In this document: one piece after another, positions 2-23,187 of the stretch
Layout of the letters: each line of letters starts with the position of its first letter
Position numbering within the stretch: position 1 is the stretch's first letter
Position numbers and translations under genes: made by a program
Assembly: GCA_944386655.1 (NCBI GenBank)
Contig: CALXBX010000051.1
Coordinates: 3,106 to 67,105 of the forward strand
DNA from: an uncultured Clostridia bacterium
GTDB lineage: Bacteria > Bacillota > Clostridia > TANB77 > CAG-508
Length of the DNA: 64,000 nucleotides
Reading direction: 5' to 3'
The notes under the pieces: model-generated
Told to the model about the DNA's origin: nothing
Databases searched by the model: none
What the model saw: the letters and a program-made list of their open reading frames with translations, nothing else

Positions 2-244
2 ACTACAACGATTGGCATACGATATCGTTATGAAAAAAGAAATGTTTTGCCAAGAGAAAAGGTAGAAGTAAATACAGAATATGGATTAGTGCAAGCAAAA
101 CAGGTAAAATTAGGAGAAGAAACCTATACTTATCCAGAATATGAAAGTCTTAAAAAGATTGCTGAGGAGCAGAATATTCCATTAAAAGACTTATATCAAT
201 TGGAGAATTGGGATAAAAAAATTATGGAAATAAGTAACCAATAA
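2..244 (+). CDS. larC: 3' end of LarC-type nickel insertion protein (partial, begins upstream of the window)
   Basis: The frame is open from the window edge. TTTIGIRYRYEKRNVLPREKVEVNTEYGLVQAKQV...PEYESLKKIAEEQNIPLKDLY resembles the conserved LarC C-terminal domain. The last codons and stop lie inside repeat box A. Confidence 0.6.
   Translation, partial: TTTIGIRYRYEKRNVLPREKVEVNTEYGLVQAKQVKLGEETYTYPEYESLKKIAEEQNIPLKDLYQLENWDKKIMEISNQ
221..240 (+). repeat. Box A: ATTATGGAAATAAGTAACCA, one of 5 same-orientation copies bounding the pilin-cargo gene blocks
   Basis: Identical 20-mer at 3369-3388 and 7931-7950, 1 mismatch at 12499-12518, 3 mismatches at 13637-13656. Confidence 0.85.
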
Positions 245-324
245 AAAACAAAAATAAATAATAAGAAAAAATAAAGAAACGATATAATCCTTCTCGTAGA
301 GAATAAAAACGAGGAGGATTTATT

Positions 325-1971
325 ATGCAGGAACAAAAGAATAAAGAAAGAGGAATTACACTAATTGCCTTAGTGGTAACGATAATTGTGCTAATTATTT
401 TGGCTGGAGTAAGCATTAACATGCTAGTAGGGGATAATGGAATTATTACGCAAGCACAGTCTGCACAAAGAGAAACAGAAGAAGCAGAAGCAAGAGAAAA
501 ATTAGAAATGGCATTACTAGACTTGCAAATGGAAAAGTATACAAATCCAAATTACAATGATGAGCAATTTATTACAGATTATCTAGCAAGTCAAGGAATG
601 GTAGCACAAGATGATATAGTGATAGTAGGAGATTACCAATTTATCATAGATAGAGAAAATCTAAGAGTAACACAGAGTTTAGGAAAAGGAAATGAAAGTT
701 CAACAATAGAAATAGGACTAAGCAGCCAATTAGCAAGCGATTACACAAAGGCAACACTAAGTGTAGAAATACAAGGAAGTGATGCGATTAGTAAAATACA
801 AATTAATGGAGCAGAAGTAAGTGTACCAGAGAAAACAGAGAATAAATATACATTAACGCAAGATGTGACGACAAATGGAAACTATAATGTTTATGTATTA
901 GACAGTAATGAAGAATACAAAATAGCACAGATTCAAATAGCAGGAATTTCAGAAGATATGCAAATTAGCACAAAAGAACAATTAGAGAGCCTTAGAGATA
1001 GGGTAAATAATGGAGCAACCTATGAAGGAAGAACAATAACCTTGCAGAATGATATCGACTTACAAGGAAATGAAGATAATCAGTGGATGCCAATAGGAAG
1101 AGATGATAGTCTTGCTTTTAAAGGGACTTTTTATGGAAATAATCATATGATTAAAAACATATATATAGATACTACGGAAGGTAATCAAGGTTTATTTGGT
1201 ACAGTATTAAATACAACCATACAAGATATAACAGTAACAGGAAGTATTGTAAATGCAGGTTCAGCCACAGGAGGAATAGTAGGAGCTTTAGGAAATTCGA
1301 TAATTATGAACTGTCATAATGAAGTAACTATATATAGTGGAGCAGGAATTCATGTTGGCGGTATTGCTGGTTATATGGATTCAAAATCCTCTGTTGTAAA
1401 TTGTAGTAACAACAGCAATATTACAGCATTAGGACGTTCAAGTAATGAACAGATGGAATCTTTTACAGGAGGAATAGCAGGAACGTGTGAAGGAAAAATT
1501 GAAAAGTGCTATAATGTAGGAGATATCTATGGATATTGCTTAGCAGGAGGAATAGCAGGAGGTATTTTACAAGGAGAAATTAGAGATTGTTATAATACAG
1601 GAAATATTAAAGTTGATTATAGAAAAGCAGGAGGAATAGTAGGTTATATTCATTATTACAGTGGTGGAACTGTAGGTTACACTAGAATTATCAATACTTA
1701 TAGTACAGGTATAGTGACAGGAACAACTCAAATTGGAGCTAGCATAGGTATGATTGCACTTGAGGAATCTACCATATTGCAGGCAGATAACAATTATGCC
1801 ATAAATCAAAATGATTTATCAGCAATAGGAGGAAATGTAACGAATACAAATGTAAAAGCTGAATTAAAAACAAGTGAAGAACTAAAACAATTAGCAACTA
1901 CTTTAGGAGAAGCATTTAAAAAAGATATAGAAAATATTAATGGTGGATATCCTGTTTTACAATGGCAATAA
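325..1971 (+). CDS. Prepilin-like N-terminal module fused to a GLUG-motif repeat domain
   Basis: GGAGG RBS 7 nt upstream. N-terminus is MQEQKNKERG|ITLIALVVTIIVLIILAGVSINMLVGDNGIITQAQ. The C-terminal half has repeated GGIAG/GGIVG (GLUG-type) motifs and ends INGGYPVLQWQ, as many GLUG proteins do. Confidence 0.7.
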   Translation: MQEQKNKERGITLIALVVTIIVLIILAGVSINMLVGDNGIITQAQSAQRETEEAEAREKLEMALLDLQMEKYTNPNYNDEQFITDYLASQGMVAQDDIVIVGDYQFIIDRENLRVTQSLGKGNESSTIEIGLSSQLASDYTKATLSVEIQGSDAISKIQINGAEVSVPEKTENKYTLTQDVTTNGNYNVYVLDSNEEYKIAQIQIAGISEDMQISTKEQLESLRDRVNNGATYEGRTITLQNDIDLQGNEDNQWMPIGRDDSLAFKGTFYGNNHMIKNIYIDTTEGNQGLFGTVLNTTIQDITVTGSIVNAGSATGGIVGALGNSIIMNCHNEVTIYSGAGIHVGGIAGYMDSKSSVVNCSNNSNITALGRSSNEQMESFTGGIAGTCEGKIEKCYNVGDIYGYCLAGGIAGGILQGEIRDCYNTGNIKVDYRKAGGIVGYIHYYSGGTVGYTRIINTYSTGIVTGTTQIGASIGMIALEESTILQADNNYAINQNDLSAIGGNVTNTNVKAELKTSEELKQLATTLGEAFKKDIENINGGYPVLQWQ

Positions 1972-1993
1972 AATATATTATAGCTAGGTGAAA

Positions 1994-2027
1994 ATATGGT
2001 GTACAAAAATGTACATCATATTTTTTT
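1994..2027 (+). terminator. Rho-independent terminator after the GLUG gene
   Basis: ATATGGTGTAC-AAAAAT-GTACATCATAT stem (one G.U) followed by a T7 run. A homologous copy is at 5410-5441. Confidence 0.75.
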
Positions 2028-2125
2028 ATGTCAAAAAGATATTAAATAAAAACAACCAAATAGGAGAAAAGAAAAAGTAAATGGGATAAAATTTCTTAAA
2101 ACAAAAAACGAAAGAGGGGAATGAA

Positions 2126-3286
2126 GTGAATAACAAAAGAAAACAAAAAGAGAGCGGTATTACATTAATAGCATTAGTGGTAACAATCATTGTTTTGATA
2201 ATCTTAGCAGGTGTAAGCATTAATATGATAATAGGAGATAATGGAATTATTACTCAGGCACAGAAAGCAGCAGAAGATACAAAATTGGCACAGGAAAAAG
2301 AAGCAATATCGTTAGCAATCTTAGAAAATGAATTAAGCGGTACAGAGCTGGAAATAGGAACAACATTATATAGCAAAACATTAGCAAATGGAAATAGATG
2401 GCATATATTAACTAATAAAAACGATGGGACAAGCTATGGAGATGGCTGGATATATATTCCGGAAAATACTAGTATTTCTAATTTTGGACAAACAACACAA
2501 AATTGGCTTGTCCATTCGCAAACAGGAGAGATACTATCTATAAGTATGGAAGATTATACAGAGACTTATTATGGAATGAACCTAGCTGTAACGGAAGGAC
2601 TGCTATTAAATGTAGATCCAGTGAATATGGAAGATGAAGATAGTTGGGGAGAAGGAGTAACATTATATGGAGTAACGCCGGGAGACGGTTATGGTTACAA
2701 TGGAGATGCTATTTTATTTGACGGAGTGAATGATTATATAGAGATTTATGCAGATACGCCAATTGACAAAGGGTTTACTTTTGAATTTTATGGAAAATCT
2801 GAAGATGATAGAATTAATATGTTAGCAAAAACCTTAATTGGAGAACAGGAAAATTATATTGGTAGATTTAGAATTAATATGATAGGAAATCAATTTAGAG
2901 CAGCATTTGCAGGAGGAGATGCTGGATCTGATTGGGGAATGTCTGACAATAATAAACATTGGATAGCAAAGCAATTAAATGGGGACTTTAGTGCTGAAAA
3001 TGGAGAATATCTTACGATGACAGTAAACTTAGAAACAGATACTATTACATTATATTTAAATGGTGAAAATATAGGTGCTACTGTATGTAATCATGATTGG
3101 TTGATATCAGGACAGTTAACGAATGGAGAAATTCCATTTACTATAGGATTAATAATTGCTGGAACAGAATATACGGAAACTTATTCTTCCATGGAACTAT
3201 ATGCATGTAGGTTATATAATAGAGTACTAACAGACGAAGAAATAACAGATAATTATGAAACAACAGTTGCTTATAGAGAACAATAA
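2126..3286 (+). CDS. Prepilin-like N-terminal module fused to a LamG/concanavalin-A-like lectin domain
   Basis: GTG start after AGAGGGG. N-terminus is MNNKRKQKESG|ITLIALVVTIIVLIILAGVSINMIIGDNGIITQAQ. LamG_3 hallmarks are FDGVNDYIEI, LYLNGENIG and the terminal RLYNRVLTDEEI. Confidence 0.8.
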   Translation: MNNKRKQKESGITLIALVVTIIVLIILAGVSINMIIGDNGIITQAQKAAEDTKLAQEKEAISLAILENELSGTELEIGTTLYSKTLANGNRWHILTNKNDGTSYGDGWIYIPENTSISNFGQTTQNWLVHSQTGEILSISMEDYTETYYGMNLAVTEGLLLNVDPVNMEDEDSWGEGVTLYGVTPGDGYGYNGDAILFDGVNDYIEIYADTPIDKGFTFEFYGKSEDDRINMLAKTLIGEQENYIGRFRINMIGNQFRAAFAGGDAGSDWGMSDNNKHWIAKQLNGDFSAENGEYLTMTVNLETDTITLYLNGENIGATVCNHDWLISGQLTNGEIPFTIGLIIAGTEYTETYSSMELYACRLYNRVLTDEEITDNYETTVAYREQ

Positions 3287-3322
3287 ATATCCATTTAAGT
3301 CAGTCTTTTTTATGACATGTCA

Positions 3323-3343
3323 CAAAAATGTCAGGGATAAGTG
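3323..3343 (+). repeat. Short repeat CAAAAATGTCAGGGATAAGTG (copy 1 of 2)
   Basis: An identical 21-mer lies at 10174-10194. It is preceded by the palindrome TTTTTATGACA/TGTCACAAAAA. Confidence 0.7.
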
Positions 3344-3368
3344 GGAAACCTAAGAATAATGTCGAAAA

Positions 3369-3388
3369 ATTATGGAAATAAGTAACCA
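3369..3388 (+). repeat. Box B (ATTATGGAAATAAGTAACCA)
   Basis: Identical to box A. Roughly 100 nt of downstream leader is also near-identical to 241-324. Confidence 0.85.
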
Positions 3389-3472
3389 ATAAAAAACAAA
3401 ATAAAGAGATAAGAAAAAATAAAGAAACGATATAATCCTTCTCGTAGAGAAAAATAACTAGGAGGATTTATT

Positions 3473-5380
3473 ATGCAGGAACAAAAGAATAAAGAAAGAG
3501 GAATTACTTTAATAGCCTTAGTGGTGACGATAATTGTGCTAATTATCTTAGCGAGTGTTTCTATTAATATGCTAGTAGGAGAAAATGGTCTTATTACAAT
3601 GGCACAGAGGGCGAAAAATGAGACAGAACAAGTGCAAAAAGAGGAAGAACAGGAATTAGCAGGGATATTTGGAAAGAATTATGCAGATTATAATGGAGAA
3701 TTACATATAGAAGGAGAAAAAGTTTTAAATCAATATAATGAACAAATTCAATTAAATGGATTATATTATGGTTATGGAAATTCAGAATATACAGAAGCAT
3801 TATTAACGGCATTGAAAAATAAAGGTGTAAATATGATAAAAATAGGATATAGCTATAGTGGAGGAACAGAACCATATAATAAAGAAGGAAATATGGAAGC
3901 AATGTATTCTTTTATAGATCAGTTGTTAGCGATGAACTTTTATATCGACATTATATATTGGTCAGGTAATGACTTGAATCAGGAAGGATATACTAAAGTA
4001 AATGAAGCTACAGATTATTTTACTCAAATAGCTAATAAATACCCAGATAATACACAAATCTTATATGAAATTTGTAATGAGCCTTTTGATAATACTTGGG
4101 GAGAAGTTAAGCAATATGCAGATAGTGTAATTCCTGAAATTAGGCAAATAAGTGAAAATGCAATAATATCTGTTCCAACAAATGATAATCTTTTTAATGA
4201 GACATTTCTATCAGATTTATTAAATTATAATAATATTATGTATGTAACTCATATATATGCAGAAGGAACGATTGCTGTTAAAAGCATGACTGCCGCAATT
4301 GCTAACAATAGTATACCTGTATTTATTTCGGAGTGGTCAAATAATAATGGGAATGAGACAAGCTATAATAATGAAGTAACAGATAATTTAATATATATAA
4401 TAAATAAATATAAACTAGCAAATTCTGCGTGGTATTTTTATGGTTCGAGTACAAGAGATTCGGAGTTTTTCATGATAAAAAAAGAGTATTGGGAAGAAGT
4501 GTTAAAAACTGGAAACATAAATGATAATGTGCTTGGAATAGCAGGAAAATATTATTTCGACTTTATACAAGGTTTCAATAAAGGGAAAGAAGAAGGAAAT
4601 TTAGTAAATGCTAATTATATTAATTCTTTAATGTTCTGGGAGGAAAAATACAGAACAAATATTACGAAAATAATATTTGAAGATAAAATAAATGTACCGG
4701 ATAATGCTTTAATGGTGTGGGATGTATCTGACAATAATTCTGGAACAATTATAGCATATTTAATAGATGATGGTAAAAATAATGGAACATATGAGTTATA
4801 CATTTGTGGAAATAATGAAAAAGTAAAAGTTGTTTCATTATCTCTCACTTTTCGTGATTTTACAAAGTTAGAATATATAGATATAACACAGATGGATACT
4901 AGAAAGGTTAAATCAATGTATAATATGTTTGGAAATAATCAAAATTTACAAACAATAATTGGTTTAGAAAATATAGATACATCAAATGTAACTAATATGC
5001 AAGAAATGTTTTATGCCTGCGCACAGTTAACTAAATTAGATGTAAGTAATTTTAATACATCAAATGTAATTAACATGAGCTCTATGTTTAATGGAGCAGG
5101 CATGAGGAATTCCAATTTTGAGTTGATTTTGGGAGAAAAGTTTGATACCTCTAAGGTTACTAATATGACATATATGTTCTATTTAACTGGAATTGCAAAT
5201 CCAAATTTTATTTTAGATTTGAGAAGCTTCACATTTAAAGATGATGTAGATGTTACAAATATATTTACTTTTATGAAAGCAACAACAATAGTCTATGTAA
5301 AAGATGAAGAAATGCAACAGTTTGTTATAAATGCAAGAGGAGAAAATGCATGGTCTACAGCAAATGTTTTAATTAAATAG
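3473..5380 (+). CDS. Prepilin-like N-terminal module fused to a divergent GH5 (cellulase family A) domain and DUF285/BspA-type repeats
   Basis: N-terminus is MQEQKNKERG|ITLIALVVTIIVLIILASVSINMLVGENGLIT. It has the ILYEICNEPF acid/base motif, THIYAEG and FISEWS. The C-terminus has FNTSNVxNMxxMF-type DUF285 repeats. Confidence 0.7.
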   Translation: MQEQKNKERGITLIALVVTIIVLIILASVSINMLVGENGLITMAQRAKNETEQVQKEEEQELAGIFGKNYADYNGELHIEGEKVLNQYNEQIQLNGLYYGYGNSEYTEALLTALKNKGVNMIKIGYSYSGGTEPYNKEGNMEAMYSFIDQLLAMNFYIDIIYWSGNDLNQEGYTKVNEATDYFTQIANKYPDNTQILYEICNEPFDNTWGEVKQYADSVIPEIRQISENAIISVPTNDNLFNETFLSDLLNYNNIMYVTHIYAEGTIAVKSMTAAIANNSIPVFISEWSNNNGNETSYNNEVTDNLIYIINKYKLANSAWYFYGSSTRDSEFFMIKKEYWEEVLKTGNINDNVLGIAGKYYFDFIQGFNKGKEEGNLVNANYINSLMFWEEKYRTNITKIIFEDKINVPDNALMVWDVSDNNSGTIIAYLIDDGKNNGTYELYICGNNEKVKVVSLSLTFRDFTKLEYIDITQMDTRKVKSMYNMFGNNQNLQTIIGLENIDTSNVTNMQEMFYACAQLTKLDVSNFNTSNVINMSSMFNGAGMRNSNFELILGEKFDTSKVTNMTYMFYLTGIANPNFILDLRSFTFKDDVDVTNIFTFMKATTIVYVKDEEMQQFVINARGENAWSTANVLIK

Positions 5381-5409
5381 ATGTTGTTAAGAAAATAATA
5401 AATATAAAA

Positions 5410-5441
5410 ATATGGTGTGCGAAAAAGTACATCATATTTTT
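5410..5441 (+). terminator. Rho-independent terminator after the first GH5 gene
   Basis: ATATGGTGTGC-GAAAAA-GTACATCATAT stem followed by a T run. It is a paralog of 1994-2027. Confidence 0.7.
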
Positions 5442-5542
5442 ATGTTAAAAAGATAACAGCTAAAAACGAAAAAGTAAAAGACAGAGGAAAATAGCTAAGA
5501 TAAAATAATTCGTGTAAAAATAAGAAACGAAAGAAGGAAAGA

Positions 5543-7930
5543 GTGATGCAGAATAAAAGCAAAAAAAGAAATACAGGGATTACCTTAATTGCACTAATCA
5601 TAACAATTATCATTTTAATTACATTAGCGGGAGTTTCTATTAATATGCTAGTAGGAGAAAATGGTCTTATTACAATGGCACAGAGGGCAAAGAATGAGAC
5701 AGAACAAGCACAAAGAGAGGAAGAACAGGCATTAGCAGGAATATTTGGAAAGAATTATGTGGATTATAATGGACAGTTAAGCATAAAAGAAGGAAAATTA
5801 ACAAATCAGTATGAGGAAAATGTAGTTTTAAGAGGAATGAGTGCGGGAAATGGAAAGGGAATAGAAAGCTTAACAGAAAAATACTATAATAAAGAGTCTT
5901 TATCCGTAATAAAAAGTTGGGGAGCAAATGTACTTAGAATACCAGTAGATACAGATGCGTATTATCAAGGATATGCTTCTAATCCAGATATTATCAATAG
6001 AGTGTCTGAAATTGCAGATATATGTATAGAATTAGATATGTATGCCATAATAGATTGGCATGTGTTATATGAAGGAAATCCAAATACTTATGCAGAACAA
6101 GCAAAAGAATTCTTTAGTCAGATAGCAACTAAATATAAGGATGTGCCAAATATTTTATATGAAATCTGTAATGAACCAAACGGAGATGATGTGACATGGG
6201 AAGTAATAAAAAATTATGCAAATGAGATAATACCAGTAATAAGAAATATAGATAGTGATTCTATTGTAATAGTAGGCACACCTTCATGGAGCCATAATGT
6301 GGATGAAGTAGTTGGTAGTGAATTAGAACATAGTAATATAATGTATACATCTCATATGTATGCATCCACTCTAAATTCTGATAGAATGAATAGACTTAAA
6401 ACCGCAGTTGAGAATAATATACCAGTAATTGTTACAGAGTTTGGAACAGCAGTGACAGGGTGGGGAACACAGGATGGATTGTTGTTAGAAAATTCAAATA
6501 TAATTGCAAATTATATGGAAGAAAATAATATAAGTTGGTGTAATTGGAGTATGACTGACCATTATGAAGGCTTGGCACTGGTAAAATATAATCAATGGGA
6601 TAATTCTTTAAATGATAATATTCTAAGTGAAAGTGGAAAATATATAAAACAATTATTACAAAATGCACAAATACAAAATAATCCAGTTATGATGGAATAT
6701 GAAGAAAATTATGCATTTTGGAATGAAGAATATAGAAATAATGTTACTAGTATTATCATAGAAAATGAAATAGACAATGATAAAATTAATAATGCAGTAG
6801 AACATTGGGATGTATCGTTTGCAAACAACAATAGTGTTATAGCATATATAGAAAATGATTCAGAAAATGCTGGCAAATATATATTGCATATAACAGGAGA
6901 AGGTGGAGTATATTGTGCTCCCAATAGTAGGAATTTATTTAGTGATTTTATAAGTTTAAAAAATGTAGATTTTAATAATTTAGATACAACCAATGTTAAT
7001 GATATGGGATTTATGTTTTCTGGAGATGTTGAGCTTGAAAGTATAGATTTAAAAAATTTCAAAACGAATAATGTTACGTATATGGAAAGAATTTTTTACA
7101 ATTGTGCAAATTTAAAAACTTTGGACTTCTCGAGTTTTGACTTTACAAAAGTAGTAAGATTTTATGAAGCATTTGGGAAATGTACTAATTTAGAAAGTAT
7201 AAAATTTCCAACACAAAAAAGTGATATGATAAGTGTGTTGGGATTATTTAGTCATTGTGAAAATTTAAAAGAGATAGATTTGAGTTCATTTAATACAGAA
7301 AGAGTTACCGCAATGAATGGAATGTTTTCCTATTGTTATAATATTGAAGGTATAAATTTTGGAGATACTTTTAGTACAGAAAATGTTACTTCTATGAGAG
7401 AAATGTTTTACCAATGTAATTCATTAAAAAAATTAGATTTAAGCAAATTTAATACATCTAAGGTTACAGATATGTATTATATGTTTGGAGGTTGCTATAG
7501 TTTACAAACTCTTGATTTAAAGAACTTTAATACAGAAAACGTAGAGAACATGAGTAGAATGTTTCATAACTGCAATAGCCTTACTACTTTAAATGTGTCA
7601 TCATTTAACACATCTAAGGTTACAAATATGGCATATATGTTTCAGGTATGTAGACAATTAACACAATTAGATTTAAGTAATTTTGATACATCTAATGTAA
7701 CAGATATGACTTTTATGTTGAGTAATTTGAATAATGTACAGAAAATTAATTTAAGTAATGCTAATTTTGATAGTGTAAAAAGTTATGATAACATGCTAAC
7801 TTATACTAATTCTTGGAAAAATGCAATAATAATAGTAAAAGATGAAAATGCAAAAAGTTTTATACAGTCACGTTTAGATGAAGTTGGTAATACGGCAGAA
7901 ATACAGATAAGTAACGGACAACAAGAATAG
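5543..7930 (+). CDS. Prepilin-like N-terminal module fused to a GH5 glycoside hydrolase and about 8 DUF285/BspA-type repeats
   Basis: Start is GTG 5543 or ATG 5546 after AAGGAA. N-terminus is ..KKRNTG|ITLIALIITIIILITLAGVSINMLVGENGLIT. A full GH5 residue set is visible: VLRIPV, IIDWHV, ILYEICNEPNG, SHMYAS, VIVTEFG. Repeats follow the pattern FNTxxVTxMxxMF. Confidence 0.8.
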   Translation: MMQNKSKKRNTGITLIALIITIIILITLAGVSINMLVGENGLITMAQRAKNETEQAQREEEQALAGIFGKNYVDYNGQLSIKEGKLTNQYEENVVLRGMSAGNGKGIESLTEKYYNKESLSVIKSWGANVLRIPVDTDAYYQGYASNPDIINRVSEIADICIELDMYAIIDWHVLYEGNPNTYAEQAKEFFSQIATKYKDVPNILYEICNEPNGDDVTWEVIKNYANEIIPVIRNIDSDSIVIVGTPSWSHNVDEVVGSELEHSNIMYTSHMYASTLNSDRMNRLKTAVENNIPVIVTEFGTAVTGWGTQDGLLLENSNIIANYMEENNISWCNWSMTDHYEGLALVKYNQWDNSLNDNILSESGKYIKQLLQNAQIQNNPVMMEYEENYAFWNEEYRNNVTSIIIENEIDNDKINNAVEHWDVSFANNNSVIAYIENDSENAGKYILHITGEGGVYCAPNSRNLFSDFISLKNVDFNNLDTTNVNDMGFMFSGDVELESIDLKNFKTNNVTYMERIFYNCANLKTLDFSSFDFTKVVRFYEAFGKCTNLESIKFPTQKSDMISVLGLFSHCENLKEIDLSSFNTERVTAMNGMFSYCYNIEGINFGDTFSTENVTSMREMFYQCNSLKKLDLSKFNTSKVTDMYYMFGGCYSLQTLDLKNFNTENVENMSRMFHNCNSLTTLNVSSFNTSKVTNMAYMFQVCRQLTQLDLSNFDTSNVTDMTFMLSNLNNVQKINLSNANFDSVKSYDNMLTYTNSWKNAIIIVKDENAKSFIQSRLDEVGNTAEIQISNGQQE

Positions 7931-7950
7931 ATTATGGAAATAAGTAACCA
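7931..7950 (+). repeat. Box C (ATTATGGAAATAAGTAACCA)
   Basis: Identical 20-mer starting immediately after the GH5 stop codon. About 45 nt downstream still resembles the box A flank. Confidence 0.85.
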
Positions 7951-8087
7951 CAAGAAAACAAAAATAAATAATAAGAGGAAATCAAGAAAAGTACCTTGCC
8001 AAAATAAAGAAAAAAATATATAATTCCCCTAGAAACAAGTATATAAAAAACAAACTTGTTGCATAATAATACAAAAGGAGAAAAGCA

Positions 8088-8642
8088 ATGACAGAGAAAG
8101 AAAAAATGTTGCAGGGGCAATTATATGATGCCAATCATAATCCAGAATTAATTGCAGAGAGGCAAAAAGCAAAGGAAATTTGTTTTAACTATAATCAAAC
8201 CATACCAACGAATATGGAAAAAAGAACAGAAATATTGAAGAATTTATTAGGAAGTACAAAAAATAATTTCCTAATAGAGCCTTCTTTTCAATGTGATTAT
8301 GGGTATAATATTCATATAGGAGAAAACTTTTATGCTAATCATAATTTAGTGATATTAGATGCAGCAGAAGTCACCTTTGGAGACAATGTGTTAATAGGAC
8401 CAAACTGTGGATTTTATACAGCAGGACATCCTAGTAATGTAGAACAAAGAAGAGCAGGGTTAGAATATGCAAAACCAATTCATATTGGAGATGATGTATG
8501 GATAGGTGGAAATGTAGCAGTTTTGCCGGGAGTTACTATAGGAAATAATAGCATTATAGGAGCAGGTAGTGTAGTGAACAAAGATATTCCATCGGGAGTA
8601 ATAGCAGTAGGAAATCCTTGCAAAGTAGTGAAAAAAATATAA
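8088..8642 (+). CDS. maa: Maltose/galactoside O-acetyltransferase family (hexapeptide repeat)
   Basis: MTEKEKMLQGQLYDANHNPELIAERQKAKEICFNYN is the Mac-type N-terminal domain. It is followed by left-handed beta-helix hexapeptide repeats (IGDDVWIGGNVAVLPGVTIGNNSIIGAGSVV). Confidence 0.85.
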   Translation: MTEKEKMLQGQLYDANHNPELIAERQKAKEICFNYNQTIPTNMEKRTEILKNLLGSTKNNFLIEPSFQCDYGYNIHIGENFYANHNLVILDAAEVTFGDNVLIGPNCGFYTAGHPSNVEQRRAGLEYAKPIHIGDDVWIGGNVAVLPGVTIGNNSIIGAGSVVNKDIPSGVIAVGNPCKVVKKI

Positions 8643-8650
8643 AAATTTCC

Positions 8651-8679
8651 TTGCAAACCCTAAGGTAATATAGTATAAT
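8651..8679 (+). promoter_or_regulatory. SigA-type promoter of the tyrS leader
   Basis: TTGCAA, 17-nt spacer, TATAAT. Confidence 0.7.
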
Positions 8680-8685
8680 TATAAA

Positions 8686-8922
8686 CAACTTTATTTAATT
8701 ATGTTTGAAAAGAAAATAGTAGGAGACTATTGTGACAAAAGAGAGATAATGAAAGGTGAAAATTATCCGTAAATAGAAAATCCGAATTACATTTCTTATA
8801 GTAATTAGCGTGTAAGCAGCGAGATGCTTAAAAATAAAGAGGCATGTAAAAAATTACATGTAAATAAAGGTGGTACCACGAGTCAAATCGTCCTTTACTA
8901 AAAGGATAGTTTGGCTCTTTTT
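8686..8922 (+). promoter_or_regulatory. T-box leader with a tyrosine (UAC) specifier controlling tyrS
   Basis: AGAGA motif in stem I. UAC followed by A at 8788-8791. Conserved T-box AAAGGTGGTACCACGAG at 8866-8882. Terminator stem 8881-8916 plus T run. Confidence 0.85.
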
Positions 8923-8952
8923 AGTATAAAAATAAAAGAGAGGAGAAAAAAG

Positions 8953-10191
8953 ATGACATTAGTAGAAGAATTAAAATGGAGGGGACTAATCAAAGACATT
9001 TCTAGTCCAGAACTAGAAGAAAAACTTAATCAAGGAGGATTAACTTTTTATATAGGAACAGACCCTACAGCAGATAGCTTGCACGTAGGACATTTATCTA
9101 GCTTTTTAATATCCAAAAGGCTAAAAGAAGCAGGACATACTCCTATCTTATTAGTAGGAGGAGGAACAGGAATGATAGGAGATCCTAGACCTACTACAGA
9201 AAGAGCGATGATATCTAAAGAAGAAGTAACCAAAAACTTTGAAGGACTAAAAGCACAAGTAGAAAAGTTATTTGGCTTTGAAGTTGTAAACAATTACGAC
9301 TGGCACAAAGATATCAACGTGTTAGATTTCTTAAGAGATTACGGAAAATACTTTAATATTAACTACATGTTAGATAAAGATATTATTAGAAGAAGATTAG
9401 ACACAGGTATTACTTATACAGAATTTTCTTACATGATTTTACAAGCGTTAGATTTTAAATATCTACATGAGCATAAAAATGTAGATTTGCAATGTGCAGG
9501 TTCCGACCAATGGGGAAATATTACAGCAGGAATTGATTTAATTAGAAAATCAACAGGAGATGAAGTATACGGCTTTACTATGCCACTTGTCACCGATTCC
9601 CAAGGAAAGAAATTTGGAAAGAGTGAAGGAAATGCTCTATGGCTTGATAAAGAAAAAACATCTAGTTATAAGCTATATCAATTCTTTGTAAATGTAGAAG
9701 ATTGTATGGTAATTGATTACCTAAAAATCTATACCTTCCTATCCAAAGAAGAAATAGAAGAATTAGAAAAAAGAAATCAAGAACACCCAGAACTAAGAGA
9801 AGCCCATAAAGCCCTTGCAAGAGAAATTATTACCTTTTTACATGGAAAAGAAGAATATGAAAGAGCCGTGAATCTTGCAGACCATTTATTCCATAATAAA
9901 TTCCAAGATTTATCTAAGAAAGATATAGAAGATTTATTTGGAAGCGAAGAAAAAAAGATAGTAGAAGAAGGAATGAGCATTTTAGATGCACTAGTTCAAG
10001 TAGGAGCAGCAAGCAGTAAAAGAGAAGCAAGAGAATTTGTAGCAAACGGAGCTGTTTCCATTAATGGTGAAAAAGTAACAGACGTAAATGCAGAAATAAC
10101 AGCGGCAAGCTTTATAGAAGGAACCTATATTGTTATCAAAAGAGGAAAGAAAAATTACTATATAGGAATGTCTCAAAAATGTCAGGGATAA
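8953..10191 (+). CDS. tyrS: Tyrosine--tRNA ligase
   Basis: MTLVEELKWRGLIKD..., HVGHL (HIGH) and KFGKS (KMSKS) motifs, C-terminal S4 domain. ATG 8953 follows AGAGAGGAG. The ORF-track start at 8911 lies inside the T-box terminator. Confidence 0.95.
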   Translation: MTLVEELKWRGLIKDISSPELEEKLNQGGLTFYIGTDPTADSLHVGHLSSFLISKRLKEAGHTPILLVGGGTGMIGDPRPTTERAMISKEEVTKNFEGLKAQVEKLFGFEVVNNYDWHKDINVLDFLRDYGKYFNINYMLDKDIIRRRLDTGITYTEFSYMILQALDFKYLHEHKNVDLQCAGSDQWGNITAGIDLIRKSTGDEVYGFTMPLVTDSQGKKFGKSEGNALWLDKEKTSSYKLYQFFVNVEDCMVIDYLKIYTFLSKEEIEELEKRNQEHPELREAHKALAREIITFLHGKEEYERAVNLADHLFHNKFQDLSKKDIEDLFGSEEKKIVEEGMSILDALVQVGAASSKREAREFVANGAVSINGEKVTDVNAEITAASFIEGTYIVIKRGKKNYYIGMSQKCQG

Positions 10192-10235
10192 GTGAGACAT
10201 GTCTCATTTAACCCTGACTTAAGTGGGACACTTAA
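10174..10235 (+). repeat. Palindromic element overlapping the tyrS stop codon (contains copy 2 of the 21-mer)
   Basis: The 21-mer is identical to 3323-3343. There is a 19-bp hairpin GTCAGGGATAAGTGAGACA/TGTCTCATTTAACCCTGAC (10181-10218, one mismatch), then TTAAGTG-GGA-CACTTAA (10219-10235). Confidence 0.75.
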
Positions 10236-10263
10236 AAAGAAAAAAGGGGAAAAAGGAAGAAAA

Positions 10264-11406
10264 ATGGCAGATAAACAAGAATGGGAAGAATTAGAAAAAT
10301 GGTATAGAGAGAAACAAGAGAAAAATAGAGAAGAATATGGTTTTGATAAAAGTGTTTTAGAAGAAAAGAAACCGTTAAAAGAATCGGTAAGAACTACCAT
10401 GCACTCTGTTGTAGAAATGAAAAATATTGTATGGATTATTTTGGTAGTTCTTTGCTGTATTCTTATCTTCTTTATTTTAAATAGATTATATTTTGCTACC
10501 CATAAAACAGACGAACAGAAAGTTATAGAAACAGCCAAAAGTTTATATGGCGTGGATTGTAGCGTTGTGCAGAAAAAAGAGTTAGAAGAAGGAAAAAATA
10601 AATATACTTTGCAAGTAAATAACCAACCGGAAGTGACATTTCAATGTGTGAAAACGGGAGGTGGTTATGCTTTTGATTATACATCTTATAGCCACCAACG
10701 CTATTTTGAACAGTGGAAAAGCGAGAAAAAAGAACAGTTTGTAGTAGAAGAGAAAACTACAACAGATGGATTATTCCAATATGAAACTTATATTCCAATA
10801 ACGGTAGAAGATTTTGAGGTTATTGAGAATAAAATTGAGGACATAGGAGAATTTGTAGAATATGCAGGAGAAAATTATTCCCCCTTTTGGAATGTGTATT
10901 TAGCTTATGGAGAAAGTAGAATTTATCCTTATAGTGGTATGCCCTCTCAAATAGATAAGGAACAAGCAGTAGAAGAGAGTAAGAGAACCTTTATAAATTA
11001 CATAATGAAGAAAGAGCCAGAAGAGGCAAGACAATTGTACTCTACAGAAATCTTAAATACTTATTGGAAACCAACTGCTTTAAAAGTGGTACTAAATGGA
11101 AAAGAAATACCGATAACGAATTCTGTAGTACAAATGTATTATTCTACACAAGAAAAAGAATATACATTACAACTCTATACAGAGTTCGTAAAACAAATAA
11201 ATGGAGTAGAAATTATTAGTAGAGCAGAAATGATGCCGACAGAATTTTCGTATGGAGGACATACCTACACTGTAACGAATAAGGATACAAATTTGGAAAA
11301 ATATCAATTAGGTTATACTTTGAGCCTACAGGAATTAGAAGAACTATTTCATGCGAAAATAGAATTGGATAAGGAAGAAGAAATAGCATGGATTACAATA
11401 CCATAA
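10264..11406 (+). CDS. Hypothetical single-pass membrane protein
   Basis: ATG after AAGGAAG. Charged N-terminus, one TM (IVWIILVVLCCILIFFIL), then an extracytoplasmic domain of about 280 aa with no motif I recognise. Confidence 0.5.
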   Translation: MADKQEWEELEKWYREKQEKNREEYGFDKSVLEEKKPLKESVRTTMHSVVEMKNIVWIILVVLCCILIFFILNRLYFATHKTDEQKVIETAKSLYGVDCSVVQKKELEEGKNKYTLQVNNQPEVTFQCVKTGGGYAFDYTSYSHQRYFEQWKSEKKEQFVVEEKTTTDGLFQYETYIPITVEDFEVIENKIEDIGEFVEYAGENYSPFWNVYLAYGESRIYPYSGMPSQIDKEQAVEESKRTFINYIMKKEPEEARQLYSTEILNTYWKPTALKVVLNGKEIPITNSVVQMYYSTQEKEYTLQLYTEFVKQINGVEIISRAEMMPTEFSYGGHTYTVTNKDTNLEKYQLGYTLSLQELEELFHAKIELDKEEEIAWITIP

Positions 11407-11508
11407 AATTTTTAGAAAAGGGCTTACAAAAAAATAAGTGGTATGATAAGATAGCATTAGGGGAAAAATAAAAGGGAATACATAAGAAAAAACAAAAGGA
11501 GAAAAAAT

Positions 11509-11952
11509 ATGCTATTTAATATTCTAGCAATTTTTGTAGGACTAGCCCTTCTAGTGATAGGTGCGGATATATTAGTAAAAGGGGCTAGCAACATAGCCAA
11601 AAAATTTCATATTCCAGAAATTTTAATAGGACTTACTATTGTAGCAATAGGAACAGCTCTTCCAGAAATGGTAACTTCTTTAATAGCAGTCATTACAGGC
11701 GATGCCGATATAGCAGTAGGAAATTTAATTGGTTCTAGTGTATTAAATTCTTTCCTTATTTTAGGAATAGGAGCAGCCATTACACCACTTACCATTTCAG
11801 CAGAATTTACAGAAAATTTATTACTTCTTATCTTCTCTACTGCCTTGCTTTGGTTGTTCTGCTATTTGCCAAAAAAAGATACGCTAACAAGACCAAAAGG
11901 ATTGATTTTAGTCCTAATTTTTGCAATATACATGATAAAATTATTTGTGTAA
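11509..11952 (+). CDS. Half-size Ca2+/cation antiporter (CaCA/YrbG-like) with a single alpha-repeat
   Basis: MLFNILAIFVGLALLVIGADILVKGASNIAKKFHIPEILIGLTIVAIGTALPE is the N-terminal Na_Ca_ex repeat. The ORF stops after about 5 TM segments (147 aa), whereas full-length family members have two repeats. Confidence 0.6.
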   Translation: MLFNILAIFVGLALLVIGADILVKGASNIAKKFHIPEILIGLTIVAIGTALPEMVTSLIAVITGDADIAVGNLIGSSVLNSFLILGIGAAITPLTISAEFTENLLLLIFSTALLWLFCYLPKKDTLTRPKGLILVLIFAIYMIKLFV

Positions 11953-12034
11953 AGAAAAAACATATATTTTTCGCATAAGAAAGCAAGAAGCTGGAAATAA
12001 TGAAAATAAGAAAACAAAAAGGAGTGGAAAATAT

Positions 12035-12472
12035 ATGGAAAAAACCGTAAGTTGTTTAAATCAATTTTTAGCAGATTTAGCAGTATTTTATAGAAAACTG
12101 CAAAATTTTCATTGGAATGTAGAGGGAAAAGATTTTTATGTTATTCATGCAAAACTAGAAGAATATTACGATGACATCAATGAGCAAATTGACGAAATAG
12201 CAGAATACATCTTAAGCATAGGAGGGCAACCTTTGGGAACTATGAAAGACTACATGCAAATTACAAAAATACAAGAGGCGGAAAATGTAAAAGTAAAAAG
12301 TGATGCTGTATTATCTTGTTTAATAAAAGATTATGAAACTATTTTGCAAGAAGCAAAACAAATCAAACAGGAAAGTGATACAAACAATGATGCACAAACC
12401 TCTACTATGATGGATGACTATATTGAAGATTATAGTAAAAAGTTATGGATGTTACGTCAAACAATGGCATAG
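12035..12472 (+). CDS. dps: Dps-family DNA-protection/ferritin-like protein
   Basis: LNQFLADLAVFYRKLQNFHWNVEGKDFYVIHAKLEEYYDDINEQIDEIAEYI. ATG 12035 follows AAAGGAG. Confidence 0.9.
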   Translation: MEKTVSCLNQFLADLAVFYRKLQNFHWNVEGKDFYVIHAKLEEYYDDINEQIDEIAEYILSIGGQPLGTMKDYMQITKIQEAENVKVKSDAVLSCLIKDYETILQEAKQIKQESDTNNDAQTSTMMDDYIEDYSKKLWMLRQTMA

Positions 12473-12498
12473 AGGAAAAGATAATAATATATTAAAAA

Positions 12499-12518
12499 AT
12501 TATGGAAACAAGTAACCA
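12499..12518 (+). repeat. Box D (ATTATGGAAACAAGTAACCA)
   Basis: 19/20 identity to box A. It is followed by the same GATATAATCCTTCT leader. Confidence 0.8.
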
Positions 12519-12601
12519 GCAAAAAATAAAGAGTTATAAAATGAAAAATAGTAAAAAAGATATAATCCTTCTTGTTAAAAGAGACAAGGAGGATTTTTAT
12601 T

Positions 12602-13606
12602 ATGCAAAAGAATAAAGAAAACGGAATTACAATGGTTACATTAGCAGTAACTATTATTGTAATAATCATTTTAGCTGGTGTAAGTATTAACACTTTAATT
12701 GGAGATAATGGAATTATTACGAAGGCGCAGCAAGCAAGAAAAAATATAGAATTAGCACAAGTAGAAGAACAAACGTCTTTGAATCAGTTGTATGAACAGA
12801 TGGAGCAAGAAGGAAAATATGAAGAAGATGAGGAATCACAACAAAAAGATGAAATGATAAAGTCCTTGCAAGAACAGTTAGAAGAACGAAGTAAAGAAAT
12901 AGAAGAATTAAAAAAACAATTGCAGATTTACAAATTAAAAGAAGGGGATTATATTCAATATGATACAGGAGTAGAAGGAGTAGGTAAAATAACTTGTAGA
13001 GTCTTGTATACAGCAAGTTCAAAGTATGGATTACAAATTATTGCAGATGAAGGCGTAGAAACAGTATCATTAGGAGTGATGGATAACCTTGAAGCATCAA
13101 AAACAAGTTATAATAATGCGATAGAAACATTAAATCGTAAAGCGGAAACATATATTAATACAACATATGCTACAGATGCAAGATGTGTAGGAAGTGTGCC
13201 AACAGTAGAAAATGGAGTATTTATCAATAAAAATTCGGAAACAGCAGGACCTGTTACAATGCAATTTGCATACAATGGAAGTACGAGTATAGATGCTAAA
13301 GGAGAAGATACAAATTATACGGCAGATGAAGAACAATTGAGAAGTTTCAATCTTTTAGTAACAGGCTATGAATATTGGTTATCTTCTCGTTATATATTTT
13401 CCAATTCTACTGGCTGTGGGTTAAATATACGCAGAATAACAGCATCTGGAAGTTTATTTTATGGCGACATGTGTTCTATTTATTATACAGGAAAAGCTGT
13501 TGGAAGAGGTTATGACTTTGCTCTTCGTCCTTGCATTCTTTTAAGAGACGATATAGAAATAGTAGGTGGAAATGGAAGTGAAGAAAAACCGTATATAATA
13601 GGTTAA
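12602..13606 (+). CDS. Prepilin-like N-terminal module fused to a coiled-coil and an unknown C-terminal domain
   Basis: ATG after AAGGAGG. N-terminus is MQKNKENG|ITMVTLAVTIIVIIILAGVSINTLIGDNGIITKAQQA. This is followed by a Glu/Lys-rich coiled segment and a Cys-containing domain of about 210 aa (..YWLSSRYIFS..RPCILL). Confidence 0.65.
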   Translation: MQKNKENGITMVTLAVTIIVIIILAGVSINTLIGDNGIITKAQQARKNIELAQVEEQTSLNQLYEQMEQEGKYEEDEESQQKDEMIKSLQEQLEERSKEIEELKKQLQIYKLKEGDYIQYDTGVEGVGKITCRVLYTASSKYGLQIIADEGVETVSLGVMDNLEASKTSYNNAIETLNRKAETYINTTYATDARCVGSVPTVENGVFINKNSETAGPVTMQFAYNGSTSIDAKGEDTNYTADEEQLRSFNLLVTGYEYWLSSRYIFSNSTGCGLNIRRITASGSLFYGDMCSIYYTGKAVGRGYDFALRPCILLRDDIEIVGGNGSEEKPYIIG

Positions 13607-19852: not shown

Positions 19853-20109
19853 TGGAAAATCGTATTACAGAGGCTATAACTTATATGATTGAACAAAATA
19901 AAAAATCTTCAGATACAAAACAGGCAGTCATTAATGCAGCTAATTCTTATGAATATATAAAAACAGCACAAAGAATATTAGAAGAAACAATGTTAAATGA
20001 AAGAAAAGAAGTAAAAGATGTTCATCTTGCTCCTAGTGTAGAGGACATAAAGAGAGAAATGGAAACCATTGTTATGAGAAGAACAAATGAAGGAGAAAAA
20101 GAAAGATAA
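19852..20109 (+). CDS. Small hypothetical protein, translationally coupled to the upstream gene (TAATG overlap)
   Basis: The stop and start codons overlap. 85 aa, charged and helical, no recognisable motif. Confidence 0.4.
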   Translation: MENRITEAITYMIEQNKKSSDTKQAVINAANSYEYIKTAQRILEETMLNERKEVKDVHLAPSVEDIKREMETIVMRRTNEGEKER

Positions 20110-20136
20110 AAGCTAGAAAATCTAGCTTTTCTTTTC
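20108..20136 (+). terminator. Rho-independent terminator
   Basis: AAAAGCTAGA-AAA-TCTAGCTTTT followed by CTTTTC. Confidence 0.75.
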
Positions 20137-20214
20137 GTGTGAGAGGGAAAATTTTAATTTTCCCTACTCGATTGCTACAGGTATGTGATTTAAATAAAGA
20201 AAAGGAGCTAAAAA

Positions 20215-21405
20215 ATGTACGAAATATTTGCAGATTTACATGTTCATATAGGAAGAACAGAAAATGGAAAACCAGTAAAAATAACAGCGGCAAGATCTTT
20301 AAATTTTGCCAATATTGCAAAAGAATGCTATGAGAGAAAAGGAATACAAGTAGTAGGTATTATTGATTGTGCCTCTCCTTATGTAATAGAAGATATAGAG
20401 AATTTTTTGAAAACAGGAGAAGCTTACGAAATAGAAGAGGGAGGCATTATTTATAAAGACGAAATTTGTATTTTATTAGGAAGTGAAGTAGAAACTTCTG
20501 AACAGGGAAGAAATGGAAAAGCAGGAGCAGCACATAATCTTTGCTTTTTTCCACACTTGCAAGATATCAAGGCTTTTTCTAAGGAAATGAGCAGGCATAT
20601 CAAAAATATAACCTTAAGTACGCAACGTTCCGATATTTCTGGCTATGAATTAATCGATATTGTAGAGAAATATCATGGTATAGTAATTCCTGCCCATATC
20701 TTTACACCACATAAAAGTTATTACGGCAATTGCACAGACCGTTTAGCATACATTTTTAAAGAAAAATTGGATAAAGTTTTTGCGGTAGAATTAGGTCTTA
20801 GTTCCGATACAGAATTAGCAGATGAAATTTCAGAATTAGAAACAAAAACCTTCCTTACCAATTCGGATGCACATTCGCTACCTAAAATTGCAAGAGAATA
20901 CAATAAAATGCTAGTAGAAGCAATTTCTTTTCAAGAAATTGTAAAAGCCCTAAAAGGAGAAGATGGTAGAAAAATATTAGCTAATTATGGCTTAGACCCA
21001 AAATTGGGAAAATATCATAGAACATATTGTGATGATTGCAATCAAACAATTGAAACCAAAGAGCCAGTAGAAATTTGTCCAAAATGCGGTGGAAAAAATA
21101 TTACTTTTGGTGTTTTTGATAGAATAGAACTTATTAAAGATAAAAAAGAAAGTAGAAGTCCAGCAAATAGACCAAAGTATATTTATCAAGTACCTCTTAG
21201 CTTTATTCCAGGAGTAGGAAACAAAGTGATGGATAAATTATTAACCCATTTTGGAACAGAGATGAATATTCTTCACAAAACCACAAAAGACGATATAGAA
21301 GCCGTAGTAGGAGAAAAAATTGCCACAGCCATAGTAAAGGCAAGAGAAGGCAGAGCGCAAATACAAGCTGGTGGCGGAGGCGTTTATGGAAAAGTAAAAG
21401 AATAA
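20215..21405 (+). CDS. PHP-domain protein of the TIGR00375/endonuclease Q-like family
   Basis: ADLHVHIGR metal-binding start, IPAHIFTPH, TNSDAHS, a CxxC...CxxC zinc finger (CDDCNQ..CPKCGG) and a C-terminal helical domain. Confidence 0.55.
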   Translation: MYEIFADLHVHIGRTENGKPVKITAARSLNFANIAKECYERKGIQVVGIIDCASPYVIEDIENFLKTGEAYEIEEGGIIYKDEICILLGSEVETSEQGRNGKAGAAHNLCFFPHLQDIKAFSKEMSRHIKNITLSTQRSDISGYELIDIVEKYHGIVIPAHIFTPHKSYYGNCTDRLAYIFKEKLDKVFAVELGLSSDTELADEISELETKTFLTNSDAHSLPKIAREYNKMLVEAISFQEIVKALKGEDGRKILANYGLDPKLGKYHRTYCDDCNQTIETKEPVEICPKCGGKNITFGVFDRIELIKDKKESRSPANRPKYIYQVPLSFIPGVGNKVMDKLLTHFGTEMNILHKTTKDDIEAVVGEKIATAIVKAREGRAQIQAGGGGVYGKVKE

Positions 21406-21485
21406 GAAAATAAATTTTAGTTCTAATCTTTTTCGTTATGGAATAGACATTATGTAGAAGGAAAATAGAGAGGAAGGAAAAAGAT

Positions 21486-22145: not shown

Positions 22146-22282
22146 GGATAGAAAAAAATTGTAGAATTTTGTAAAAATGACTTTACTTTTTTTTAGGAAT
22201 TTGATATAACATATATAGTTTATGTAAATTGTATCAATTTGTACATAAAAAATAAAATCAATAAGAGAATAGGGGAGCTGAA

Positions 22283-23164: not shown

Positions 23165-23187
23165 AATAGAGGGATAAAATAGAAGAA

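Follow-up and report, generated by a model that had tools for sequence, protein, structure and literature searches.

The window analysed here is a 64-kb stretch of contig CALXBX010000051.1 from an uncultured gut Clostridia bacterium, low in GC at about 30%; coordinates are those of the window throughout, unless a locus from another genome is named. Near its left end lie five genes on the + strand, at 325-1971 (gene 1), 2126-3286 (gene 2), 3473-5380 (gene 3), 5543 or 5546-7930 (gene 4) and 12602-13606 (gene 5). Their products begin with one and the same short module, which resembles the signal and first helix of a type IV prepilin, and continue into cargo that differs from gene to gene. An original prediction, made from the sequence alone, had placed the five open reading frames exactly there, and our analysis confirms them with one adjustment. 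The end of gene 4 at 7930 stands, and an ATG at 5546 (794 aa) is a likelier start than 5543 (795 aa), because metagenome contigs carry that start call.

Gene 1 encodes a protein of 548 aa, with the module at residues 1 to about 58, a putative cleavage Gly at residue 10, and Ala at position 5 after it, followed by a beta-rich region and GLUG repeats (Pfam Glug, 1.1e-9); eight gut metagenome contigs encode exactly this protein. Gene 2 starts with GTG and encodes 386 aa, in which the module is followed by a small beta domain and a LamG/ConA-like lectin domain (Laminin_G_3, 5.8e-7). It has more than 5000 full-length relatives at E<=1e-5, with identities of 43-97% among the 120 matches listed, where every name is "hypothetical protein", and proteins 97% identical to it are present on gut metagenome contigs; an orthologue with 50% identity is encoded by GCA_047248085.1, a genome of this lineage. 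Gene 5 (334 aa) joins a module with Thr at position 5 to an E/K/Q-rich helical stalk and a Cys-containing C-terminal domain; this C-terminus has no significant match in Pfam, NCBIfam or PDB sequences, and the protein is 30% identical to a module protein from an array in a related genome (locus L080). In that array the order is DUF285, DUF285, a gene-5-like protein and GLUG, which resembles the window.

The cargo of genes 3 and 4 is enzymatic. In gene 3 (635 aa) the module leads directly into a GH5 catalytic domain (Cellulase, PF00150, 3.6e-27 at residues 86-321), followed by DUF285/PARCEL repeats (DUF285, 2e-21). Gene 4 has the module, a GH5_2-like endoglucanase domain (PF00150, 5.5e-55) and nine DUF285/PARCEL repeats (DUF285, 9.2e-47; NCBIfam PARCEL repeat, 1.4e-67, in nine stretches). 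Its closest solved structures are the endoglucanases 6gjf (2.9e-68) and Cel5A (1e-63), with about 300 residues aligned, and its NEP and TEFG align opposite the NEP and TEWG of 6gjf. Of the two GH5 motifs named beforehand, ILYEICNEP occurs in both genes, while VTEFG is found in gene 4 and is replaced by ISEWS in gene 3. Both proteins have the NEP acid/base and a second catalytic Glu (NEP and SEWS in gene 3), and the GH5 catalytic motifs of both are intact. The likeness of gene 4 to Bacillus agaradhaerens Cel5A and other endoglucanases of the GH5 subfamily 2 type lies in the catalytic domain, NEP and TE(F/W)G. The solved GH5 relatives were deposited as catalytic domains, whereas the window proteins add a pilin-type N-terminus and C-terminal DUF285/PARCEL repeats. 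The expectation of differing cargo was thus correct: Pfam and NCBIfam scans recovered Glug, Laminin_G_3, Cellulase and DUF285, giving one GLUG protein, one LamG protein, two GH5 proteins with DUF285 and one protein without a family match. No LPXTG-type sorting motif is visible at the end of any of the five proteins, so the module is their sole evident attachment.

The module itself is 42-58 aa long and consists of a basic leader ending in Gly and then ITLIALVVTIIVLIILAGVSINMLVG(D/E)NGIITxAQ. A six-frame motif scan of the 64 kb gives exactly five copies. The modules of the five genes are 57-88% identical over 42 residues from the cleavage Gly, and the remainders of the proteins are 24-36% identical under a forced global alignment. 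The leaders of genes 1 to 5 are MQEQKNKERG, MNNKRKQKESG, MQEQKNKERG, MQNKSKKRNTG and MQKNKENG; all are hydrophilic, fall within the 6-26 aa of class III signals and end in Gly. The Gly is followed by 26 uncharged, mostly hydrophobic residues (ITLIALVVTIIVLIILAGVSINMLVG), in line with the ~21 predominantly hydrophobic residues of a pilin alpha-1N helix. Position 5 after the Gly is Ala in genes 1-4 (Gly followed by ITLIA) and Thr in gene 5 (Gly followed by ITMVT), as first described.

Beyond the window, the module defines a very large family. A profile built from 17 modules and searched against 1.84 billion cluster representatives matches 32,093 clusters at E<=1e-3 and 20,409 at 1e-10; for nearly all of the top 150, the match begins no later than residue 25. 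A 68-residue query also matches more than 1,300 short proteins, and all 21 of those fetched read (K/R)GITLIALV(V/I)TI(I/V)VL(L/I)ILAGVSI.ML.G.NGI(I/L).QA, with Ala at position 5. Conservation and cargo were counted in 68 long representatives with a mean column identity of 12%. In these proteins the Gly at -1, T2, L3 and about 25 more module positions show at least 90% conservation or no variation at all; the Gly does not vary in the 17 modules or in the 68, and neither does the basic leader across the 68. In our judgement, such conservation seems to exceed what would be expected of a plain membrane anchor. The cargo includes Glug in 14 of the 68, GH5, DUF285 and FGE-sulfatase-like domains in five each, GDSL esterases (Lipase_GDSL_2 in four, Lipase_GDSL in two), BspA-type LRR_5 in three and a polysaccharide deacetylase (CE4) in one. 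With GH5 in five of 68 family members, the GH5 fusion is a recurrent architecture and not peculiar to the window. Chance or low-complexity similarity was rejected given the five in-register copies, the more than 20,000 clusters and the invariant Gly. A phage or mobile-element origin of the module was also considered and set aside, a tblastn search of 50,697 phage records being without match.

The prepilin-type character of this N-terminus (a class III signal followed by an alpha-1 helix) is borne out by homology and by the pilus loci of related genomes. Against the PDB, the best match of the module profile is MshA (1.2e-3), with weak matches to geopilin (0.15) and PilA (0.28); all three are type IV major pilins, and each alignment is in register, starting at the leader Gly. 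The Pfam family PF07963 (N_methyl) reaches 20.4 bits in relatives and is matched at E<=1e-3 by 10 of the 68 family members. No sequence similarity to GspK was seen, the only such matches being weak ones to GspG (NCBIfam).

To find the module in its relatives' genomic settings, one genome per species was scanned, which gave at least 448 module-encoding stretches, and the best 80 loci were read. All 80 come from uncultured gut metagenome-assembled genomes (MAGs; human and rabbit); nearly every one bears the label Clostridia, Clostridium or Clostridiaceae, and several loci often share one MAG. Two or more module genes lie within ~20 kb in about 19 of the 80, so arrays are common. In six MAGs we found six pilus loci (L023, L031, L032, L053, L068 and, in part, L044), with one to three proteins of 127-173 aa, encoded in tandem, that begin with the module. 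The gene order is rsmB, pilM/N, pilO, a small membrane protein, the module pilins, a pilD-like gene, two minor pilins, pilB, pilT and pilC. In L031 Pfam recognises PilN (9e-5), A24_N_bact (4.7e-30), T2SSE in PilB (1.4e-93) and PilT (9e-45) and T2SSF (1.1e-26), together with N_methyl in a short pilin (3.7e-4). The short module proteins are the only major-pilin-like genes in the six loci, and all have Ala at position 5. Pilus locus and modular protein can also occur in one MAG: CALXEW01 carries L031, whose pilus locus is intact, along with a module-GLUG protein resembling gene 1 (L017), and CALXCM01 has the L023 pilus locus and a module-FGE protein (L073).

The finding of this module at the head of putative short pilins, in complete loci of the type IVa pilus (T4aP) kind, is the evidence that decides for the pilin reading of the N-terminus, which is largely supported, through related genomes rather than through the window. 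We consider it very probable that the module is pilin-derived and common to the pilus subunits of this lineage. In addition, the near-identity of the alpha-1N segment in short pilins and modular proteins, and its conservation, argue for the same interaction partners in both. Taken further, our preferred reading takes the products of the five genes to be modular type IV pilin-like proteins that the pilus pathway processes and handles, to which we give a probability of roughly 60%.

Under this reading, each protein would be laid out as a basic leader up to the Gly, an alpha-1N helix of ~26 residues, a G(D/E)NG hinge and a charged alpha-1C helix. It would be inserted in the membrane N-in/C-out, and an A24 prepilin peptidase would cut off the leader after the Gly, probably with methylation of the new N-terminus. 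A PilB/PilC/PilMNO machine would then handle the alpha-1N helix as it does that of a major pilin, and the cargo would therefore be carried through the wall on the pilus (at its tip or along its shaft) or kept at its base. The analysis suggests that the pilus pathway exposes a large and variable set of surface proteins. For incorporation into filaments, that is, for the proteins actually sitting on pili, we would put the chances a little short of even.

An AlphaFold2 model was made for gene 2 only, from 68 orthologues (mean pLDDT 86). It has a helix at 11-36, a break at GDNG, a second helix at 41-71, a beta domain at 79-148 and a jelly roll at 159-364, followed by a C-terminal helix; the top Foldseek matches of the jelly roll are the lectin-like Hc domains of clostridial neurotoxins. 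A separate model of residues 1-160 (pLDDT 80) has helices at 14-36 and 41-71 and five short strands.

A number of results weigh against the reading we prefer. PF07963 scores 15.1 bits in gene 1 and 14.6 in gene 3, against a gathering threshold of 21.2, and does not match genes 2, 4 and 5; TIGR02532 is not reported at E<=1 for the window proteins. The gene 2 model shows a long N-terminal helix pair and offers no recognisable pilin head: residues 1-160 have no Foldseek match in the PDB at E<=0.001, the nearest being SH3-like folds (E=0.18), with PAK pilin further off (E=1.4). The GH5 domains of genes 3 and 4 begin about 20 residues past the helical stalk. With no head in the gene 2 model and GH5 directly after alpha-1, the pilin-like part would be alpha-1 only. 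It is also hard to see how many different subunits with bulky cargo could be accommodated in a filament elsewhere than at its tip. None of the five window genes has Glu or Asp at position 5, and in the bacterial pili that have been studied Glu5 is needed for homopolymer assembly (PMC4471445). Furthermore, the 64 kb contain no pilB, pilC, pilD or pilM gene, as was observed at the outset, and no pilT or A24 gene either; pilus machinery and A24 are absent from the 10 kb beyond the right end too. In the relatives, the PilD-like protein of the pilus locus is without the GxGD second catalytic Asp in five of five loci and has no PF01478 match. The related MAGs are also not very close, their housekeeping proteins being about 40-79% identical to those of the window.

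The sub-threshold PF07963 scores, the missing Glu5 and the lack of pilus machinery within the window would all be natural if the module were an ordinary Sec signal anchor or a long Gram-positive signal peptide, either uncleaved or cut by signal peptidase I between the A and the final Q of (I/L)TQAQ, and if the pilin resemblance reflected descent from a pilin gene whose function was lost. A conserved small-x-small motif (T-Q-A) does lie ~33 residues past the Gly, where such a cut could fall. That motif is inside the predicted helix at 41-71, though, and a Sec signal leaves unexplained why the Gly at -1 and the basic leader should be invariant in 68 divergent proteins. The 26 uninterrupted hydrophobic residues, the pilins as best PDB matches, and the presence of the module on the 127-173 aa proteins between pilO and pilD in all six loci likewise speak against it, and we regard this explanation as very improbable.

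The residue at position 5 was given another meaning by the original prediction, which took the loss of Glu5 as the mark of a tip or initiator minor pilin. This part of it fails, as the short putative major pilins of the pilus loci also have Ala5. In all module-family members seen, the residue is Ala, rarely Thr, Ser or Gly, and never acidic. A canonical pilin with FTLxE after the Gly was found neither in the window (six-frame motif scan, 64 kb) nor, by regular expression for Glu5 pilins, in 1.1 Mb of related loci. Only among the two minor pilins downstream in the pilus loci does an acidic residue occur, one of them having Asp5 (IVGAD or FTGID after the Gly) and the other Ser or Thr. As far as these sequences go, the absence of Glu5 belongs to the lineage and not to a role.

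The case for GspK/PilX-like tip subunits capping a filament whose canonical Glu5 major pilin is encoded elsewhere has some attraction. Where tip complexes have been studied, a Glu5-less subunit caps them (PMC10191384), modular pilins are thought to be exposed at the tip (PMC8179133), and it is at the tip that bulky cargo fits best. GspK and the tip minor pilins of the PilK/PilX class resemble the window proteins in being without Glu5 and in that they may bear an extra domain (PMC10191384, PMC8179133). In GspK-type systems, however, a single subunit is without Glu5 and the major pilin has it, whereas here the loss is family-wide: every module-bearing pilin in the related pilus loci is Glu5-less, the short pilins bear the same Ala5 module, no Glu5 pilin turned up in the window or the 1.1 Mb, and the sole acidic residue at position 5 is the Asp of one small minor pilin downstream of pilD. 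We consider the tip reading improbable. Reviews describe Glu5 as almost invariant in bacteria (PMC10191384, PMC4471445). Prepilins can be processed without it, and subunits mutated at Glu5 co-assemble with unmutated ones (PMC4471445).

The search for machinery used tblastn with the machinery proteins of L023 and the A24 peptidase of L038, together with Pfam scans of most other open reading frames. The 10 kb past the right end of the window hold a second polysaccharide cluster. To the left, the contigs that carry gene 1 break just upstream of it, and a sister-strain contig that extends further has only another GLUG paralogue there and no machinery. In the related genomes, the prepilin peptidase appears to be split. 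The PilD-like protein (L031 11011-11859, L023 11357-12169, also in L032, L053 and L068) matches A24_N_bact only; its CxxC...CxxC domain at the N-terminus and its first Asp motif are preserved. As it is without the second Asp, processing must rely on a separate A24 enzyme. Such a protein exists, 250 aa long, with both Asp motifs (ID..IPNRL and G(L/F)GDVKL), no N-domain and a Peptidase_A24 match of 1e-16 to 1e-19 (L038 5475-6227, L011 4158-4910, L079 12237-12986), so the lineage has a plausible processing enzyme. Its neighbourhood is yqeG-A24-pepP-efp, flanked by modular genes in L011, L038, L079 and L026, loci from four further MAGs; the distance to modular genes is 0.6-3.8 kb in the first three and about 9 kb in L026. 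The module variant of L011 and L038 (TIIVLIILA.) is the closest to that of the window.

This position of the standalone A24 gene, beside modular genes and apart from the pilus locus, is one of the points that favour the main rival to processing and handling as pilins, namely that the pilin-type signal serves for targeting only. The proteins would then be cleaved by A24 and would depend on type IV machinery, or on the peptidase alone, to reach the surface, without polymerising into a long pilus; they might assemble close to the membrane or be released, in the manner of the Sulfolobus bindosome or of a type II secretion-like pathway. The missing pilin head and the fusion of GH5 straight to alpha-1 would suit such a use, as would the many bulky-enzyme paralogues per genome, with five module genes in 13 kb here and at least eight module open reading frames over five loci in CAKPKJ01. 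There is also a precedent: archaeal sugar-binding proteins with class III signals are localised to the surface through the Bas system, and a filament has never been seen (PMC4471445). The bindosome resembles the family described here in that unrelated non-filament proteins with a Glu5-less pilin-type signal reach the surface by way of a type IV machine (PMC4471445). It differs in being archaeal, in its peptidase PibD and in its solute-binding cargo, and we liken the two by their logic alone, homology apart.

Against targeting alone, the module is near-identical to the pilus-locus short pilins over the whole alpha-1N interface, which suggests co-assembly. A helical stalk of ~30 residues also seems too short, and thus unlikely, to take a glucanase past the wall of a monoderm (Gram-positive) cell, an argument that favours display on a filament. 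Moreover, no second pair of ATPase and platform genes was seen beside modular genes, except for a divergent Tad-like operon in L007. On balance we hold targeting without polymerisation to be unlikely, and handling as pilins remains our preferred reading.

The exceptional operon deserves a brief description. In L007 3175-8323 (also in L009 and L010), a very divergent Tad-like operon comes after two module genes. It encodes a CpaB-like SAF protein, a pair of ParA-like proteins, a CpaF-like ATPase that is frameshifted in the contig, and a TadB-like protein, of which only the SAF domain is recognised by Pfam. As a partner of the module it was set aside, being found neither in the window nor in the other loci checked. 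P0001, considered as a possible short pilin for the lineage of the window, was rejected; it proved to be a prematurely ending gene of the gene 1 kind, with a group II intron-type reverse transcriptase gene on the same contig. At L101 1430-3578, a gene-1-like module protein stops after 118 aa and a group II intron-type RVT_1 lies ~500 bp downstream; with a reverse transcriptase so near, the shortened gene may be interrupted.

Among known systems, the feature is best filed as a variant of the modular type IV pilins in a lineage of uncultured gut Clostridia. Modular pilins are established in Streptococcus sanguinis, where PilB has a vWA module and PilC a ConA-like lectin module (PMC8179133), and a survey by Raynaud et al. 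(2021) described about 1,200 of them in 264 architectures (PMC8179133). The likeness is that a class III signal and alpha-1 are fused to a domain foreign to pili, and with Glug, Laminin_G_3, Cellulase and DUF285 as fusion partners the window proteins fall under the definition of that survey, their pilin motif being recognised by homology and context and not at the IPR012902 threshold. The relatives' pilus loci are likewise of the monoderm T4aP type known from modular-pilin systems, with PilMN, PilO, PilB, PilT and PilC. In contrast, PilB and PilC of S. sanguinis keep a small pilin fold before the graft, whereas no head was detected here and GH5 comes right after alpha-1. Unlike in known modular pilins, Ala replaces Glu5 throughout, putative major pilins included. 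The scale is also different, with 20,000-32,000 clusters in the module family against the roughly 1,200 proteins of the survey; further differences are the split peptidase, the cassette-like arrays and a cargo that includes glycoside hydrolase, esterase and deacetylase. The family was probably largely invisible to the survey because most members scanned fall below the IPR012902/PF07963 threshold.

Novelty of the cargo as such is more limited than the original prediction suggested. The part of Dataset S1 of Raynaud et al. that we consulted lists fusions of PF13385 (LamG), IPR011493 (GLUG), IPR005046 (DUF285) and IPR005532 (FGE) (PMC8179133), so these were catalogued in 2021; GH5 identifiers were not found in that part. 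Literature searches for the module sequence string and for pilin-cellulase fusions returned no relevant paper. The surprise lies mainly in the Glu5-less system and in the size of the family.

Should these proteins be carried by type IV pili or depend on them, part of the surface and carbohydrate-active proteome of a very diverse and abundant group of uncultured gut Clostridia would be addressed by a signal that standard annotation misses in the window proteins. A dedicated profile of the module would label tens of thousands of proteins. Glu5-less subunits would also prove sufficient for building a type IV pilus in bacteria, which would make this a natural system to probe Glu5 and N-methylation, and pili would be scaffolds for enzymes besides adhesins. 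A bolder and tentative proposal, which we think somewhat likelier to be wrong than right, is that alpha-1 has become an address label of general use. In each genome, several to many proteins bearing it (endoglucanases, esterases, deacetylases, lectins and repeat adhesins among them) would be displayed through a Glu5-less machine with a split peptidase, made up of an inactive paralogue with the methyltransferase domain, encoded in the pilus locus, and a standalone A24 protease encoded elsewhere, and strains would exchange cargo by shuffling within the label itself, giving a pilus-based functional analogue of the cellulosome. Cohesin-dockerin display of the cellulosome type is comparable in that a short conserved module places many carbohydrate-active or adhesive domains at the surface. 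The two are unrelated in sequence and mechanism, the window module being N-terminal, membrane-embedded and pilin-derived, and dockerin being C-terminal and Ca-binding.

The array also shares elements between its genes. A promoter-like upstream element of ~100 nt (TTATGGAAATAAGTAACCA ... GATATAAT) stands, on the + strand, ahead of gene 1 (213-315), gene 3 (3361-3463, 89% identical to 213-315) and gene 5 (12491-12593), its function being putative, and a further copy (7923-8025, + strand) precedes a Mac-type acetyltransferase gene (Mac/Hexapep, 8088-8642), which suggests that the latter is co-regulated with the module genes. The repeat families of the element (D5, D7 and D10) have 4-5 copies with 67-94% identity. 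The homologous leaders announced in the original prediction are therefore present, and genes 2 and 4 share a second, weaker one. Before the starts of genes 1, 3 and 5, a hairpin (AATCCTTCTCG ... CGAGGAGGATT) lies over the Shine-Dalgarno sequence (281-322, 3429-3470 and 12564-12595), and in gene 5, where it covers the ribosome-binding site downstream of the fourth element copy, it shows one compensatory change from C-G to T-A. Its 5' arm abuts or overlaps a putative -10 box, so the hairpin may not be fully transcribed. A known RNA element in the shared leaders was considered and rejected, as no Rfam model reaches its gathering score anywhere in the window, and there is no T-box ahead of tyrS (8911-10191) or cysS (29017-30420).

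Genes 1 and 3 are each followed on the + strand by an intrinsic terminator, a hairpin and then a U-run, at 1991-2025 (-17.1 kcal/mol, z -6.3) and 5407-5441 (-22.7 kcal/mol, z -9.7). The two are 91% identical, in agreement with the homology claimed for them. A separate 30-nt repeat (ATGTC.CAAAAATGTCAGGGATAAGTG.GA) occurs after gene 2 (3317-3346) and at the end of tyrS (10168-10197), the copies being 93% identical.

A comparison of strains shows how such an array may change. Locus L094 (1-14322), from a sister strain, corresponds to 215-12201 of the window, with 94-95% DNA identity in the shared parts. In it, a crossover in the module has fused the start of gene 3 (leader and module) with the gene 4 body, and the 635-aa GH5 gene is lost; a leader-LamG paralogue and an AAA/PDDEXK_9 gene are inserted at the leader copy before Mac; and an additional GLUG paralogue lies upstream of gene 1. 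Module genes are also places where metagenome contigs tend to end. Together with the L094 junctions, these breaks indicate that recombination acts on the module and the leader and so shuffles the cargo. The array thus evolves by recombination in the module and the shared upstream element, which swaps, deletes or inserts cargo cassettes between strains, and through exchange at a shared module strains can readily come to differ in the glycans they bind and degrade. Of the "interchangeable tip modules" first proposed, the interchange is supported by this module crossover and leader insertion, and the tip role is not.

Relatives of PD-(D/E)XK family transposases adjoin module genes in several MAG loci, and the window has a copy at 37075-37854 (PDDEXK_2, 1.7e-41). 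The rest of the window is ordinary chromosome with sporulation-type genes. It encodes TyrS, a Dps/ferritin-like protein, two penicillin-binding proteins, RNase H, CoaE, SpoIIM, an XerD-like recombinase, RNase Y, CysS, FtsH and RNase R, as well as two polysaccharide clusters. A membrane protein of 404 aa encoded after tyrS (10192-11406) has no family match. Between the two polysaccharide clusters, an LRR protein with a C-terminal dockerin (53979-55742) adjoins a small cohesin protein (55755-56525), and this pair is a second, unrelated modular system of surface display in the same window.

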